Below the pieces are notes generated by a model. That model saw only the letters and a program-made list of their open reading frames with translations. It had not been told where the DNA came from and did no database searches. The position numbers were made by a program, and so were the translations under genes. Shown one piece after another: positions 21,540-28,240 of a DNA stretch of 64,000 nucleotides; position 1 is the first letter of the stretch; each line of letters begins with the position of its first letter. The DNA comes from an uncultured Methanosarcinales archaeon (GTDB lineage Archaea; Nanobdellota; Nanobdellia; Woesearchaeales; GW2011-AR9). The stretch spans positions 7,844 through 71,843 of the forward strand of contig CAZNUS010000002.1 of the NCBI GenBank assembly GCA_964576385.1, written 5' to 3'.

Positions 21540-21872
21540 CTATCTTTCCCCTCGAATAATCTTACAGCAATACTCATTCATATGCTTATCAATCAGCGCT
21601 AGTAATGGCTTAATGGTAGCATCGTTTACTTGGTAGTAGCAGTGCTTTCCTTTACGTTCAGGAAAAACCATGCCGCAGTGCTCCAAGCGCCGAAGATTAT
21701 GGGAAACTAATGTCTGTTCCAAACCAGTTTCAGCACAGATCTCTTGTACACACTTCTTCCCCAACTTAAGGGTATTCACGATCTTGAGCCTATTGGCATT
21801 GGCTAAAGAGCTAAAAAAAAGCTTATAAGCCGCAGGGGGTATCTTGTTTATATCAATTGATTTTTTTATCAT
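21540..21872 (-). CDS. ArsR/SmtB-family metalloregulator
   Basis: The HTH is CVQEICAETGLEQTLVSHNLRRLEHCGMV. Cys residues flank it. Confidence 0.8.
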   Translation of the reverse strand: MIKKSIDINKIPPAAYKLFFSSLANANRLKIVNTLKLGKKCVQEICAETGLEQTLVSHNLRRLEHCGMVFPERKGKHCYYQVNDATIKPLLALIDKHMNEYCCKIIRGER

Positions 21873-22501: not shown

Positions 22502-24019
22502 TTACCTTGCTGCTCCACAACCGCAACCGCCTCCACCCATGCTACAGCTGCCTCCAGTAGGTACTTTCGCTTTGTTAAGATCCTGGCTTACCGTAGCAGT
22601 ATCAACTTGTTCTTGAACGATAAAAATTCCTTGGAGCATACCCATAGCGCAGCTCCAGGAGATACTGCCCGTTTCTGTAGGAGTAAATTCTATAACTTGC
22701 TCTCCTGGTTTTATCTTAAAATTAAGCCCTAATTTTGGTACGACAATGGCGCTATTGCACCCATTTAATTCTTTACCATCAATAATCCATTTGACTGGAA
22801 CGTTTTTCTGTAAGATAAATTTATTTGGGCTCCATCCGCTATATTTGACATCCATACGTATCTCTTGGTATCCATCCTTAATCGTAAATGTGTTTTTAGC
22901 AGCATCATTTCCGCTGTCGCTTGTGGGAGTAAATGTTTCGCTTAATCCGCTAGTTAAGGAATTAAAATCATATCCGCTTCCGGTAAGAGCTAAACCGCGA
23001 TTAAGCATAATCAATCCCAATATTAAGATAAAAACACCGGAAAATTTTAATATTTTATACGTTGCTTTTGAGCCTACAAAACTGGCGAAATAGCCAAATC
23101 CCAGCATTACTGGTAACGTGCCCAGACCAAAGATAAATAACATTTTTGCTCCTTCCGATACGCTGCCAGTGCCTGCAGCTAAGATATACATCGCTTGTAA
23201 TGGTCCGCAAGCAATCATTAGTCCATTTAATAAACCAATGATTAAAGGGCTGTGGTGATGATGAGCTTCAGTGCTAACAAATTTTTCTATAAAACTTGGC
23301 CAGCGCCACTGAAATTTTCTTAATGAAGGAAAGATATTTAACATTTTTAATCCAAATATCATTAAAAATATTCCTGCAAAGATACCTACAAATCCCCTTA
23401 TAACTGGCGTGAATGCTATGATGCTTCCTAAGAATCCAAATATTGCCCCTATTACTGTGTATGATAATGTCTTGCCAAAAGCATAAGATAGATGCATCTT
23501 GTGCGGCTTTTTCCCTTGTTGTGCTCCTTTGGCAGTGTAAGAAACAACAAAACCACCGCACATAGCGATGCAATGAAATCCAGTTAATAGCCCGATGACA
23601 AATAACAAGCCGTAGCCAATATTTTGTCCAACTTCTGGTAGTTGTATACCGCTTAAATTAAAAATATATATCCCTGCTGCGATTAAGCCGATTAAAAGAA
23701 TAAACCATCCAACAAAACTACTAGAACTTTCTTTTTTAATTATATTTTCACTGATATCCAACTCTGCACAATGGTACCCTTTTTCTTCTATGGCCTTCTT
23801 AATATCAGCAATATTTGTTTTTTGCTCATCAAAATTGACTGTTACTATTTCTGTTTTATAATCAACATCTAAAGAATGTACTCCTTGTAATTTTAAAGCT
23901 TGCTTAGCGATAATTTTCTCACAGCTGTGGCAAGTCATACCTTTAGCTTTAAATTGTTTAGTCGTCATGAATACCCTCCTTGAAATATTTATTGAAGTAG
24001 TTACCCAACTTAGCACCAA
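22502..24019 (-). CDS. HMA-domain / polytopic membrane / C-terminal cupredoxin-like fusion protein
   Basis: The likely true start is M18 at 23968 (MTTKQF...). An HMA domain has MTCHSCEK. About 8 TM helices follow, with HCIAMCGG and a HHHH loop. The C-terminal cupredoxin-like domain has Cys/Met at the ligand positions (GCNSAIVVP...SWSCAMGM). The tail is GGSCSMGGGGCGCG. Confidence 0.6.
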   Translation of the reverse strand: MVLSWVTTSINISRRVFMTTKQFKAKGMTCHSCEKIIAKQALKLQGVHSLDVDYKTEIVTVNFDEQKTNIADIKKAIEEKGYHCAELDISENIIKKESSSSFVGWFILLIGLIAAGIYIFNLSGIQLPEVGQNIGYGLLFVIGLLTGFHCIAMCGGFVVSYTAKGAQQGKKPHKMHLSYAFGKTLSYTVIGAIFGFLGSIIAFTPVIRGFVGIFAGIFLMIFGLKMLNIFPSLRKFQWRWPSFIEKFVSTEAHHHHSPLIIGLLNGLMIACGPLQAMYILAAGTGSVSEGAKMLFIFGLGTLPVMLGFGYFASFVGSKATYKILKFSGVFILILGLIMLNRGLALTGSGYDFNSLTSGLSETFTPTSDSGNDAAKNTFTIKDGYQEIRMDVKYSGWSPNKFILQKNVPVKWIIDGKELNGCNSAIVVPKLGLNFKIKPGEQVIEFTPTETGSISWSCAMGMLQGIFIVQEQVDTATVSQDLNKAKVPTGGSCSMGGGGCGCGAAR

Positions 24020-24865: not shown

Positions 24866-25396
24866 ATGATAACACCAGATCAGTTTCAAGGAACTGTCTT
24901 AAAGTTTGCATTGCTGTATCATGGCTGCAGCGATAGGTATCGCGCAGAAGCAGCAGCAGGCACTATCTCTCGGTCACAAGAGAGAGTCCCAGAGTATATT
25001 GGGAGTGTTCCTATGCCGTATGCAGAAGTACGGTTTACAGGGGGTTCTAGTACTATCACTTTATCTTCTGTTGAGAGGAATCCGAGAGTTACATGGGGTG
25101 TAGAATATATGCTTCGCCTAGATCAGACCAGTTTTGATCAGTCGGATAGAATGAAACAATTACAGTCTAGAGGTGTGCTTACTTATGATCGATTAGGTGA
25201 AGAGCCGAATGGTATTCATCAGCAAGAATTTGCTCAAGTTTTCTTTGATCTTAGAGACGAAAAGGTAACCTATGCAGGATGGAATAAGTTTTTACAAGCT
25301 GCAATATCTCATTTTCCAGATATCGAAGGAGCTAGTCTTGAAGTAGGTTTGGATGAGTTTTTTAAGATGTTTGAAGATAAACATATCGTTAAATAA
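24866..25396 (+). CDS. hypothetical protein (compositionally atypical, higher GC)
   Basis: 176 aa ORF. Visibly more G+C than its neighbours. Confidence 0.4.
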   Translation: MITPDQFQGTVLKFALLYHGCSDRYRAEAAAGTISRSQERVPEYIGSVPMPYAEVRFTGGSSTITLSSVERNPRVTWGVEYMLRLDQTSFDQSDRMKQLQSRGVLTYDRLGEEPNGIHQQEFAQVFFDLRDEKVTYAGWNKFLQAAISHFPDIEGASLEVGLDEFFKMFEDKHIVK

Positions 25397-26153: not shown

Positions 26154-26771
26154 TTATGCAGTATGTTGGAATTCATTGTCAAGCATAGCTTGGTATCTTT
26201 GCGTTACAACGACCCAATCAATCGCTTTAAAAAATGCGCTAACATAATCCCCTTTCTTTAAGCCATAATCTACCATATAAGCATGCTCAAAAACATCCAT
26301 GATTAATAGCGGGGTTGTGCCTGCTAAATGTCCTACATCATGTTCGTTAATCCAAAGATTAAACATTTTTTTTCCAACTACATCATAAGCTAAAACTACC
26401 CAGCCTATACCCCTCATTGCGCCAACAGCTTTGAAATTAGTTTCCCATGCTTCCAGAGAACCGAATTGTCCAATGAGTGCTTTTGCCAAGTCTGAGGTAT
26501 TTGCTATTTGGTGCTTCGGATTTTTACTCATGTTTTGGAAGTACAATTCATGCATTCTCATTCCATTGAATTCCCATCCAAATCTTCTCTTTATCTCAGC
26601 AAATTCTGGCGTTGCTGTTTTTCCCTCCTTCACCATCTGCATCAGCGTGTCCATTAATTTATTAGTGTTAGTCACATATCCTTGATATAGAGTAAAATGG
26701 TTATTTAGCAAGGCATCGCTGAATCCAGTAGTGCCAAGTAAATGTTCAAACTGTTGTGCGTTGTAGGTCAT
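26154..26771 (-). CDS. sod: Fe/Mn superoxide dismutase
   Basis: SOD_Fe motifs are present: N-terminal H-x3-H context, DVFEHAYM and QRY. Confidence 0.9.
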   Translation of the reverse strand: MTYNAQQFEHLLGTTGFSDALLNNHFTLYQGYVTNTNKLMDTLMQMVKEGKTATPEFAEIKRRFGWEFNGMRMHELYFQNMSKNPKHQIANTSDLAKALIGQFGSLEAWETNFKAVGAMRGIGWVVLAYDVVGKKMFNLWINEHDVGHLAGTTPLLIMDVFEHAYMVDYGLKKGDYVSAFFKAIDWVVVTQRYQAMLDNEFQHTA

Positions 26772-26791: not shown

Positions 26792-27502
26792 TTAGATTTT
26801 TCCTACTAGATCTAACCCTGGCTTAAGAGTTTTTTCACCAGGTTGCCAGTTTGCTGGGCAGACTTCTCCACCATGCTTGCGTACATACTGAGCAGCTTTA
26901 ACTTTACGAATAAGTTCAGCGCTGCTTCTTCCAATATTGTTAGCATTTAATTCGTAAGAGACTAACACACCATCTGGATCTATGATAAACGTACCCCTTA
27001 AGCTTAATCCTTCTTCTGCTATGTACGTTCCATATGCTCTGCAAATAGCTCCCGTCGTATCAGCAACCATAGGAAATTTTATCTTTTTAATAGTTGCAGA
27101 GTTGTCATGCCAGGCTTTGTGAACAAAAACAGTATCAGTAGATATGCTTAGTACTTCGGTGTCCATTGCTCTTAATTCTTCATAATGGTCAGCTAAATCT
27201 CCCAATTCTGTTGGACAGATAAAGGTAAAATCGGCAGGATAAAAGAATAATACCACCCATCTCCCTCGATAACTCTTTAGCGAAACTGCCTTAACTTGTT
27301 CATTATGATATACTTCTGCAAAGAAATTTGGGGCAGGTTTGTTGATAGTAGCCATATCCTCTTCACACTGTTCCATCGAACATTCTTCTTCAGATTCACG
27401 GCAGCAAGAACCAGCCGATTCCATCTCTTCAGTGCGGCAGCAACCACCCATACTTTCTTGTTCCATCTCTTCGTTTTCTCTACAACATCCGCTGTTATTC
27501 AT
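26792..27502 (-). CDS. Peroxiredoxin (AhpC/TSA) with N-terminal CC-rich acidic extension
   Basis: The peroxidatic FTFICPTE motif and a resolving Cys are present. The ~50 N-terminal residues carry three vicinal CC pairs plus CxxxxC. Confidence 0.9.
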   Translation of the reverse strand: MNNSGCCRENEEMEQESMGGCCRTEEMESAGSCCRESEEECSMEQCEEDMATINKPAPNFFAEVYHNEQVKAVSLKSYRGRWVVLFFYPADFTFICPTELGDLADHYEELRAMDTEVLSISTDTVFVHKAWHDNSATIKKIKFPMVADTTGAICRAYGTYIAEEGLSLRGTFIIDPDGVLVSYELNANNIGRSSAELIRKVKAAQYVRKHGGEVCPANWQPGEKTLKPGLDLVGKI

Positions 27503-27609
27503 TTTTTTCCTCCGTAACTACTTAAAATAAGCAGTTATCTATTTTATTTTCTTAAATTTATTTTTCTTAGGGAATAATTCTCAATAGCATCCTTTAGCAT
27601 CTAACTCTT

Positions 27610-27867
27610 TTAATATTGCTTTATAGTTACTATCCCTTTTTTAATAGTACATTGGCAGGCATAACGTACAGTTAGGGTGGCATCCATCATTTTTTCATTG
27701 TCCGTAAGCTCTGATAGGTTTTCTGCTCCTTCTACTATCTCTATTCGGCAAGTTCCGCATCTCCCTTCTTTACAGCCAAATAGTACCCCTAACTCTTCAC
27801 AAGCTTCTTGGATAGGGCTACCATCCTTAAGTTCTATTTCTTTTTCTTTAATTCTAATTACAGCCAT
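27610..27867 (-). CDS. 2Fe-2S ferredoxin-like protein
   Basis: 85 aa with C-x4-C-x2-C ... C spacing (CKEGRCGTC...CQC). Confidence 0.65.
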   Translation of the reverse strand: MAVIRIKEKEIELKDGSPIQEACEELGVLFGCKEGRCGTCRIEIVEGAENLSELTDNEKMMDATLTVRYACQCTIKKGIVTIKQY

Positions 27868-28240
27868 TTCTACAAGTATTGCATATTCCTTTAAAAAAAA
27901 TATCTACGGAACTAACCTGGAATAAATCATCTGGGCTTTTTTTTAAGATTTGGAATTGTACATTTTTATTAAATACATCACTAATAGTATTACACATATT
28001 GCAGATAAAATGGTGATGTTCAGACAGATCAGCATCATAATGAAATTGCTTATTGATCTCTAATCGTACAATTTTACCTTTTTCTGCCATGAGGTTTAGA
28101 TTACGATAAACAGTTGCTAAAGTAATGGTGGGAATTCTTTTTTTAATCTGTACATAAACGCCTTCAGCAGTAGGATGTGTTTTTACTGATTGCAGATACT
28201 CTAGGATCGTTAATTTTTGGATAGTGTTGCGGGTAACCAT
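27854..28240 (-). CDS. Fur-family regulator (PerR/Fur-like)
   Basis: ATVYRNL DNA-binding helix. HHHF-C-x2-C and C-terminal C-x2-C structural Zn motifs. Confidence 0.8.
   Translation of the reverse strand: MVTRNTIQKLTILEYLQSVKTHPTAEGVYVQIKKRIPTITLATVYRNLNLMAEKGKIVRLEINKQFHYDADLSEHHHFICNMCNTISDVFNKNVQFQILKKSPDDLFQVSSVDIFFKGICNTCRNGCN

Follow-up and report, generated by a model that had tools for sequence, protein, structure and literature searches.

An acidic, cysteine-pair-rich N-terminal tail on an AhpC-type peroxiredoxin of DPANN archaea, possibly a redox-active dithiol arm

Peroxiredoxins are among the best-studied antioxidant enzymes, and one Cys-rich N-terminal extension is known among them, that of the 29-kDa peroxiredoxin (Prx) of Entamoeba histolytica, an anaerobe or microaerophile without glutathione and catalase; no function has been accepted for it since 1990. 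Here we analyse a gene for a peroxiredoxin with an extension of this kind, found in a 64,000-nucleotide stretch of archaeal DNA (contig CAZNUS010000002.1 of assembly GCA_964576385.1, positions 7,844 to 71,843, placed by GTDB in the Woesearchaeales), hereafter the window. In the Entamoeba protein (EhPrx; Eh29, UniProt P19476), as in the window protein, a 2-Cys core is joined to an N-terminal extension with several vicinal Cys, and the fragments given in PMC5493030 place ...NQQKECCKK...QEKECCKECCCPRI... ahead of the core. The Cys-rich region is described as probably contributing to enzymatic activity (PMC4009108), and H2O2 scavenging is lower without the N-terminus according to a passage of PMC8515043 that cites Bruchhaus 1997. 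By cryo-EM, residues 1-23 are flexible and invisible, with extra density in the ring centre (PMC13532219); the N-terminal helix has been proposed as a ring stabiliser, and high-mass oligomers are formed (PMC13532219, PMC4009108). EhPrx is a surface-associated antigen with a eukaryotic Prx1-type core (FYPLDWTFVCPTE), 40% identical to the AhpC-type window protein, and its tail is Lys/Glu-balanced and helical from C24 to E39, whereas the window tail is strongly acidic. No alignment was obtained between the two tails; the full-length EhPrx query was checked against the fragments given in PMC5493030. Since the cores are 40% identical and fall into different subgroups (Prx1 vs. AhpC), and the tails are unalignable, the two extensions appear, from their sequences, to be convergent and not of common descent.

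The AhpCs of Salmonella typhimurium and E. coli share with the window protein a near-identical active site, the resolving-Cys motif and the C-terminus ...LDLVGKI. They start 2-4 residues before the first strand, without a tail, and are reduced by AhpF encoded next door (as it is in the classical bacterial loci L069, L071, L087, and L089), whereas neither the window nor the DPANN loci showed an AhpF-like open reading frame (ORF), with its CHNC N-terminal domain. Vicinal pairs on flexible terminal arms occur in flavoprotein disulfide reductases, and the C-terminal CC of the mercuric reductase MerA shuttles soft metal between the buried redox centre and the outside. In high-molecular-weight (high-Mr) thioredoxin reductases (TrxR), terminal SCCS, TCCS, GCCG, or GCUG arms shuttle electrons as 8-membered-ring disulfides (PMC11508645). 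The arms of both reductases are C-terminal and carry a single pair at a fixed position, whereas those of DPANN AhpCs are N-terminal, acidic, of variable length, with 1-4 pairs, and stand on a peroxidase. As(III)/MAs(III) is bound by vicinal pairs in the flexible termini of ArsR proteins of types 2 and 3 (PMC11868830), and the pair of RexT is oxidised by H2O2, acting as its switch (PMC8960804). A flexible N-terminal extension with its own function is likewise present on the 2-Cys Prx decamer of Leishmania infantum (mTXNPx), where the extensions form a central belt lining the decamer lumen and are needed for client binding (PMC6368585); these are short, hydrophobic/aromatic, not Cys-rich, and bind unfolded clients. 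With metallothioneins, phytochelatins, Cox17, and ArsD-ArsR the window tail shares dense Cys, CC/CxC/CxxC patterns, and Glu combined with Cys as in (gamma-Glu-Cys)n; it differs from metallothioneins in being 33% acidic, without a family match and on an enzyme needing no metal, and from Cox17 in having neither the twin CX9C nor CCxC. In literature searches we met no account of tails like these on an AhpC from prokaryotes, and the tail is apparently undescribed for archaeal or AhpC-type peroxiredoxins, with its convergent counterpart known in Entamoeba.

The gene, its tail and the parts of its core are located as follows.

26792..27502, minus strand: AhpC-type typical 2-Cys peroxiredoxin with N-terminal tail, complete ORF, 236 aa
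27356..27502, minus strand: N-terminal tail, residues 1-49, acidic, Cys/Met-rich, predicted disordered
27482..27487, minus strand: vicinal pair C6-C7 (GCCRE), read from the sequence
27437..27442, minus strand: vicinal pair C21-C22 (GGCCRTE), read from the sequence
27401..27406, minus strand: vicinal pair C33-C34 (SCCRESE), read from the sequence
27365..27382, minus strand: single cysteines C41 and C46 (ECSMEQCE), read from the sequence
26960..27346, minus strand: AhpC-TSA thioredoxin-fold domain, residues 53-181 (Pfam PF00578)
27215-27217, minus strand: codon of the peroxidatic Cys96 (CP), within the AhpC-TSA domain
26819..26896, minus strand: 1-cysPrx_C C-terminal region, residues 203-228 (Pfam PF10417, 39.9 bits vs. 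cutoff 21.1)
26858-26860, minus strand: codon of the resolving Cys215 (CR) in GEVCPANW, invariant in the alignment
27509..27513, minus strand: Shine-Dalgarno (SD) sequence GGAGG, with the first ATG (27500-27502) 6 nt downstream

The protein starts MNNSGCCRENEEMEQESMGGCCRTEEMESAGSCCRESEEECSMEQCEED, continues from the internal Met as M50-ATINKPAP..., and then reads FYPADFTFICPTE. Its 49-residue tail holds 8 Cys, 16 Asp/Glu, 5 Met, and 3 basic residues (33% acidic and 16% Cys, net charge about -13), with no hydrophobic residues, and more than one CC pair was found in none of the other ~70 ORFs of the window. Residues 1-50 of an AlphaFold2 model were coil without secondary structure (predicted local distance difference test, pLDDT, ~50-60), and the tail is predicted to be an intrinsically disordered arm; the CC pairs at 6-7, 21-22, and 33-34 are thereby vicinal Cys pairs on a flexible terminus, as in the high-Mr TrxR type. 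The window tail matched no Pfam family at E<=10, and Pfam on six tails gave nothing meaningful, the tail of the homologue P0128 showing only sub-threshold keratin high-sulfur matches. Cox17, metallothionein, and HMA motifs (twin CX9C, CCxC, MxCxxC) were absent from the tail on inspection. Membership of a Cox17- or metallothionein-like family, which the first-pass annotation had suggested, was thus not borne out by the Pfam result, the motifs or the acidity of the tail. N-myristoylation or palmitoylation of an MGCC... start was considered and rejected, this being a eukaryotic signal and the tail being highly acidic and without a signal peptide; we know of no archaeal N-myristoyltransferase. Core Cys154 as a partner of the tail was also rejected, because its presence does not track that of the tail.

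The enzyme core itself is ordinary, that of a complete AhpC-type typical 2-Cys peroxiredoxin, in agreement with the canonical 2-Cys core first annotated. PF00578 scored above the Pfam gathering score over residues 53-181 (131.2 bits vs. cutoff 26, E 2.6e-38). In an alignment of 45 homologues P89, T93, C96, R169, and C215 were invariant, with the peroxidatic motif PxxxTxxC present as P89-ADF-T93-FI-C96 and R169 as the active-site Arg. The closest solved structures were those of Salmonella and E. coli AhpC (E ~7e-67, residues 54-236), and the core reached pLDDT >90 in the AlphaFold2 monomer model made with 45 homologues. With the NCBIfam AhpC equivalog TIGR03137, residues 51-236 scored 267.3 bits, slightly short of the cutoff of 272, which the scores of close relatives straddle (265.8 to 287.7 bits). 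PrxU (NCBIfam NF040737) gave 231.2 bits, under the cutoff of 270 for that family; the PrxU match reaches into the tail, but no score is gained there, tail-less relatives scoring equally (235-236 bits). The best homology matches of the protein were metagenome-assembled genomes of Woesearchaeota/Nanoarchaeota (DPANN), and an identical protein is recorded in an NCBI Woesearchaeota assembly.

The tail would be an annotation artefact if translation started at Met50 and the 49 upstream codons were a 5' leader. An ATG at residue 50 does directly precede the conserved core, the relative P0126 is annotated by NCBI from an internal Met, and three bacteria of the candidate phyla radiation (CPR; L027, L029, L038) have an SD-like site before an internal Met, so that the Cys tails there are perhaps untranslated. 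In the window, however, GGAGG stands at -6 of the first ATG, and no SD-like site at usable spacing precedes the Met50 codon (27353-27355), the sole SD-like string lying 1 nt away. About 50 open codons upstream of Met50 would arise by chance with P ~0.02-0.05 in a 35% GC genome, and the tail has a coding-like GC content of 45% vs. 25% in the upstream intergenic spacer. The same arrangement is found in relatives: in L001, L004, L007, L011, and L091 GGAGG or GGAGGT lies 7-8 nt before the Met preceding the first CC/Cys motif (starts MVGCC in L001/L091, MEHGCC in L004, MGRCC in L007, and MKNEENCDC in L011), and in L091 stop codons stand directly upstream of that Met. Conservation is also seen at the protein level. 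Between the tails of P0003 and P0130 Cys is conserved at 9 of 9 positions and the other residues at 38 of 44, the 6 differing non-Cys columns comprising 5 substitutions and an indel of 3 nt that keeps the frame; an in-frame 30-nt indel occurs among other relatives. Because of the SD placement, the coding-like GC, the conserved Cys and the in-frame indels, the tail is, on sequence grounds, a real translated protein. The first-pass annotation had described an extension of about 50 residues with Cys pairs, and allowed that the internal Met might be the true start; the extension holds, and the untranslated leader is by now largely refuted and highly improbable, given that GGAGG serves the first ATG, that Met50 has none, and that orthologous tails keep their Cys.

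Homologues with similar N-terminal extensions, a search for which had been proposed at first pass, were readily found. At least two Cys in the extension were present in 23 of the 120 closest homologues and exactly one in 4 more, the Cys-bearing ones being all DPANN archaea where named; the remainder had Cys-free N-termini of 2-8 residues, a few of up to ~27. The tail exceeds chance on the strength of these 23 multi-Cys extensions, and since it recurs in DPANN AhpCs and a Cys-rich N-terminus has been known in the Entamoeba Prx since 1990, the earlier description of the fusion as unusual was overstated. Of the 23, 16 have no more than one dithiol (CC, CxC, CxxxC), or 3 Cys, in about the first 10 residues, minimal dithiol forms being MGCCQEEEY, MENCCGNK, MECECKLE, and MECSNCEP, and longer forms hold 2-4 GCC-[QKR]-E units. 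Some tails contain His or CxC (P0083 MENEHEHDCKGHCEEGCCEED, P0040 MGHEHEGCCC, also MSEKECCNCKGYKCSCNCQKK). Patterns vary (CC, CxC, CCC, CxxxC), with 2 to 9 Cys per tail, GCC-x-E recurs among tails otherwise unalignable, and most units are rich in Met at CC+3 to +7. Species-representative genomes, when scanned, added the DPANN tail bearers L011, L019, and L026; the classical bacterial AhpCs among them were tail-less, with AhpF adjacent. Apparent Cys-rich AhpC N-termini also occurred in the CPR bacteria L027, L029, L038, L081, and L085 and in the Bdellovibrionales-labelled L032. In L081, L085, and L032 none of the starts is preceded by an SD. In L027, L029, and L038 the upstream in-frame codons read MECKNEQGCC(R/H)EE... 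and MEGKEKNECSGMCEV...; the start site is ambiguous there because the purine-rich stretch coding for 'REEG' also serves as SD for the internal Met, and gene callers may disagree on it.

Tail bearers were scattered over a neighbour-joining tree of the cores, and the tails differed in repeat number. The tail of P0002 (L001) contains a 30-nt tandem repeat of 3.5 copies (84% match), and P0127, a close relative of P0002, has 3 GCCxE units vs. 4 in P0128, an in-frame difference of 30 nt. These sequences indicate that the arm lengthens and shortens by in-frame duplication of a ~10-residue GCC-[QKR]-E-x-x-M-E unit, and the tail comparisons that selection acts on the cysteines while linker residues drift. 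A near-neutral origin, by slippage of a GA-rich repeat encoding Cys/Glu that is tolerated on a disordered terminus, would account for the tandem repeats and copy-number polymorphism, for the scattered phylogenetic distribution with a majority of tail-less relatives, and for the fast non-Cys positions, where in P0003/P0130 nonsynonymous changes about equal synonymous ones. It is nevertheless very unlikely: Cys pairs are kept across unalignable tails and in the non-repetitive short forms MGCCQE, MENCC, and MECEC, and Cys is costly and reactive, so that neutral persistence at 16% is not to be expected. Moreover, no tandem DNA repeat was detected by TRF in the window's own tail, whose repeats are visible at the protein level only; as DNA-level repeats can no longer be seen, this tail appears old, yet every pair has been kept.

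Acidic multi-CC termini were found only on AhpC among 4371 mechanically called ORFs of the 89 related loci plus the window, the tail module occurring on 0 of the ~4,300 other ORFs. Searches with the tail by itself came back empty, the tail being too short and compositionally biased a query: a word-indexed homology search gave no candidate, the 52-aa tail found 0 matches when run exhaustively with phmmer over 1.84 billion representatives, none of the 46 candidates from a ten-tail profile reached E<=10, and the tail alignment held no conserved stretch usable for a locus search. A degenerate DNA motif (GGATGYTGYMRNGAR-N(12-33)-TGYTGYMRNGAR), unfit as a specificity test, was also scanned against metagenomes. 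The matches listed were mostly noise (simple repeats, eukaryotic fragments, antisense frames), and among them were the P0127/P0128 AhpC clade, a histidyl-tRNA synthetase (HisRS) with a CC-acidic tail and lipoprotein-like repeats. An ORF family starting 'MSGCCHEH...' from the same scan was rejected, as it runs antisense inside a membrane-protein gene. The HisRS-like protein (L135, 2..769, plus strand; L193, 50..1003, minus strand) has an HGTP_anticodon domain and, at its C-terminus, a long tail in which HHHDHDHDHDHGHSH...HDHHHGHGCC... precedes 5-9 ECCGCCKEG(E/D)(S/A)TE repeats. The small lipoprotein-like proteins (L191, 537..926, plus strand; L194; L126, 1484..1792, minus strand) consist of a signal peptide plus Cys and then almost entirely of ECCKEKACEAKS-type Cys/Lys/Glu repeats, recalling the Entamoeba Prx tail.

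From the ~56% identity to decameric AhpC structures we infer a decameric assembly for the window protein, which would form (alpha2)5 rings with the N-termini pointing into the lumen. In 2-Cys Prx decamers generally, the inside of the ring is lined by the N-termini (PMC6368585, PMC13532219). Ten arms in such a ring would therefore place ~80 thiols and ~160 carboxylates in or near the lumen, reachable from the active sites. The reading we favour, with a probability of about 0.4, is that the tail is an auxiliary redox-active dithiol arm, a relay or capacitor, inside this ring. In the proposed scheme the arm would work as an auxiliary dithiol/disulfide module: CP-SOH would condense with CR, the arm thiols would then exchange with the CP-CR disulfide, or else trap CP-SOH, and would end as vicinal (8-membered ring) or inter-pair disulfides. 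Reduction of these by thioredoxin or by a glutaredoxin (Grx)-like/TrxR system would allow extra turnovers when reductant supply is limiting. A redox arm is favoured because, in the sampled neighbourhoods, the module is fused only to a thiol peroxidase; because its commonest forms are a single dithiol, which is enough for a redox centre and a poor metal buffer; because terminal vicinal-Cys arms shuttle electrons in high-Mr TrxR and H2O2 oxidises the RexT pair; and because the sole experiment on an analogous Prx tail, that of Entamoeba, points to catalysis. By analogy, the proposal matches the lower H2O2 scavenging of the N-terminally trimmed Entamoeba enzyme.

Candidate reductants are the thioredoxin encoded in the window and an ahpC-grx-like-trxR operon in another Woesearchaeota locus (L018).

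53339..53698, minus strand: thioredoxin (WCGPC), candidate physiological reductant (TIGR01068, 127 bits vs. cutoff 96.8)

At L018 (10001..11733) a tail-less ahpC, an 85-aa Grx-like gene (CPYC) and a 309-aa low-Mr TrxR gene (CATCD) are overlapping or adjacent in an operon-like arrangement, which we take to resemble the AhpC-reducing Cp20/Cp9/Cp34 system of Clostridium pasteurianum. A Grx-like gene also lies downstream of ahpC in L052.

Several points weigh against a redox arm. The Entamoeba tail is convergent and not homologous, so that this precedent is one of analogy only. Thioredoxin can reduce the CP-CR disulfide directly, leaving a relay without obvious steady-state gain, and the very acidic surroundings should raise the thiol pKa and slow exchange. 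The unfixed number and pattern of Cys, together with His in some tails, look more like a compositional metal-binding tail; no preference for even Cys numbers was found among the closest homologues, and the majority of DPANN AhpCs are tail-less. The test of specificity for AhpC spans gene neighbourhoods, as opposed to whole proteomes.

The lumenal position also enters a proposal that the tails are a redox- or metal-switched assembly or chaperone element, cross-linking under stress through inter-subunit disulfides or metal bridges to lock decamers or stacks, to switch AhpC toward a holdase or to set its oligomeric state. In its favour are the lumenal N-terminal extensions of Leishmania mTXNPx, on which client binding depends (PMC6368585), the ring-stabilising role proposed for the EhPrx helix, the high-mass oligomers of EhPrx, and the ease with which inter-chain disulfides would arise among ten disordered poly-Cys arms crowded together. 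With a charge of about -13 and no hydrophobic residues, however, the tail would make a poor holdase surface for unfolded clients, neighbouring tails should repel, and a chaperone function is without support in the AhpC-type enzymes of these organisms. We regard this proposal as unlikely.

The idea contained in the first-pass annotation was essentially that of a metal(loid)-binding tail, offering metallothionein- or phytochelatin-like ligands for Cu(I), Zn(II), Cd(II), Hg(II), or As(III), so that an abundant peroxide-induced decamer would buffer Fenton-active or thiol-toxic metals where peroxide is removed. Tail composition, the variable CC/CxC/CCC/CxxxC patterns and the His variants fit it, as do the enrichment of Met at CC+3 to +7 and of Glu, and the number of units varies as a capacity trait would. 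On the same side we count that functions in metal homeostasis are common in PerR regulons. In ArsR proteins of types 2 and 3, vicinal Cys pairs on flexible termini are established As(III)/MAs(III) sites (PMC11868830). The acidic ECCGCCKEG repeats on the HisRS C-terminus (L135/L193) directly follow the HHHDHDHDHDHGHSH poly-His/Asp run. In the window, the gene sits between two clusters with P1B ATPase and HMA genes, two members of which are the following.

21540..21872, minus strand: ArsR/SmtB-family regulator, 110 aa (PF01022), between the cupredoxin and HMA-P1B ATPase genes
22502..24019, minus strand: fusion protein with HMA, DsbD_2 (membrane) and cupredoxin-like domains, 505 aa

Taken together, the heavy-metal clusters that flank the oxidative-stress cluster hold two P1B-type ATPases (one with an HMA domain), a standalone HMA protein, a cupredoxin, the ArsR-family regulator and the DsbD_2-HMA-cupredoxin fusion. 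The ArsR regulator has vicinal Cys at residues 102-103 near its C-terminus (...NEYCCKIIRGER); AfArsR and SpArsR have their As(III)/MAs(III) sites at C-terminal vicinal pairs (PMC11868830). The fusion ends in a Gly/Cys tail (...GGSCSMGGGGCGCGAAR), and an ORF of 176 aa between the metal and oxidative-stress clusters (24866..25396, plus strand) is without a Pfam match.

The copper and heavy-metal genes and the Fur/PerR-like regulator are present beside the gene as first annotated, but the copper context does not carry over to relatives. No copper genes lie within 6 kb of the tail-bearing ahpC in L001-L009, L011, L019, and L026; of the 89 related loci, L035 and L049 alone have copper (HMA/CopA) genes at up to 6 kb from ahpC, and the AhpC of each is tail-less. 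An association of the tail with metal-homeostasis genes is thus seen in the window and absent in all tail-bearing relatives. Since tailed relatives are without copper genes and copper-adjacent ones are tail-less, the copper-island argument fails comparatively, and we rejected a linkage of the tail to a copper island, the neighbourhood not being conserved. Metal binding is further opposed by the lack of a metallothionein, Cox17, or HMA family match, by the commonest forms having one dithiol per subunit and thus little buffering capacity, by the restriction of the tail to AhpC in the DPANN neighbourhoods sampled, where HMA proteins too were without it, and by the fact that a peroxiredoxin needs no metal. 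We consider a metal-binding tail a close and serious rival, if on balance somewhat less probable than a redox arm; the redox and metal readings both fit the data and are inseparable computationally.

The oxidative-stress cluster itself runs on the minus strand in the order PerR-like Fur-family regulator, 2Fe-2S ferredoxin-like gene, AhpC and Fe/Mn superoxide dismutase (SOD).

27854..28240, minus strand: PerR-like Fur-family regulator, overlapping the Fer2 start (Pfam FUR)
27610..27867, minus strand: plant-type 2Fe-2S ferredoxin-like gene (Fer2), 85 aa (Pfam Fer2, E 3.5e-11)
27523..27546, no strand: AT-rich inverted repeat TAAAATA-N10-TATTTTA in the ahpC leader, between the Fer2 stop and the ahpC SD
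26154..26771, minus strand: Fe/Mn superoxide dismutase, starting 20 nt past the Prx stop codon (Pfam Sod_Fe_C)

The best NCBIfam matches of the Fur-family protein were PerR models (99.5 bits, under their cutoffs), and a Fur/PerR gene is also upstream of ahpC in L007-L009, L011, L034, and L052; the PerR-like protein probably regulates the AhpC cluster. The inverted repeat is a possible PerR/Fur-type operator, with a 7-nt arm that could be due to chance in a spacer of 25% GC. A Fer2 gene (85-87 aa) adjoins ahpC also in the DPANN loci L013, L015, L016, and L019, whether or not a tail is present, and its ferredoxin-like product may be an electron-donor partner of AhpC. The pair ahpC-sod is conserved, being found in ~35 of the 89 related loci (within L001-L091). 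DPANN archaea and many CPR/Patescibacteria genomes have ahpC followed directly by Fe/Mn-SOD, and the AhpCs of those loci are 58-66% identical to the window protein (best tblastn segment), which suggests a two-gene oxidative-stress cassette shared or exchanged between both ultra-small lineages.

A bolder proposal, which we hold to be improbable, treats the AhpC lumen with its ten expandable Glu/Cys/Met arms (~80 thiols) as a self-contained nanoreactor, working either as a capacitor or with a metal- or Fe-S-loaded arm. As a stoichiometric redox capacitor it may spare ultra-small archaea that are short of reductant the need for a dedicated reductase when peroxide comes in bursts; with arms loaded with metal or Fe-S clusters it may take electrons directly from the co-encoded 2Fe-2S ferredoxin. 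If true, this would be a previously unknown way to power a peroxiredoxin, or to add a second function to it, and would also explain the Entamoeba Prx tail in retrospect.

The tail of DPANN AhpCs is independent, recurrent and variable in length; its design is therefore convergent, and hence probably adaptive. The homologues provide a natural series, from zero to four CC units, for probing poly-vicinal-thiol arms on a thiol peroxidase. If the arm were a set of metal ligands, we would have here a metallothionein-like module joined to an antioxidant enzyme, a rarity among prokaryotes. The finding bears on how genome-reduced symbionts without glutathione and AhpF cope with peroxide and metals.

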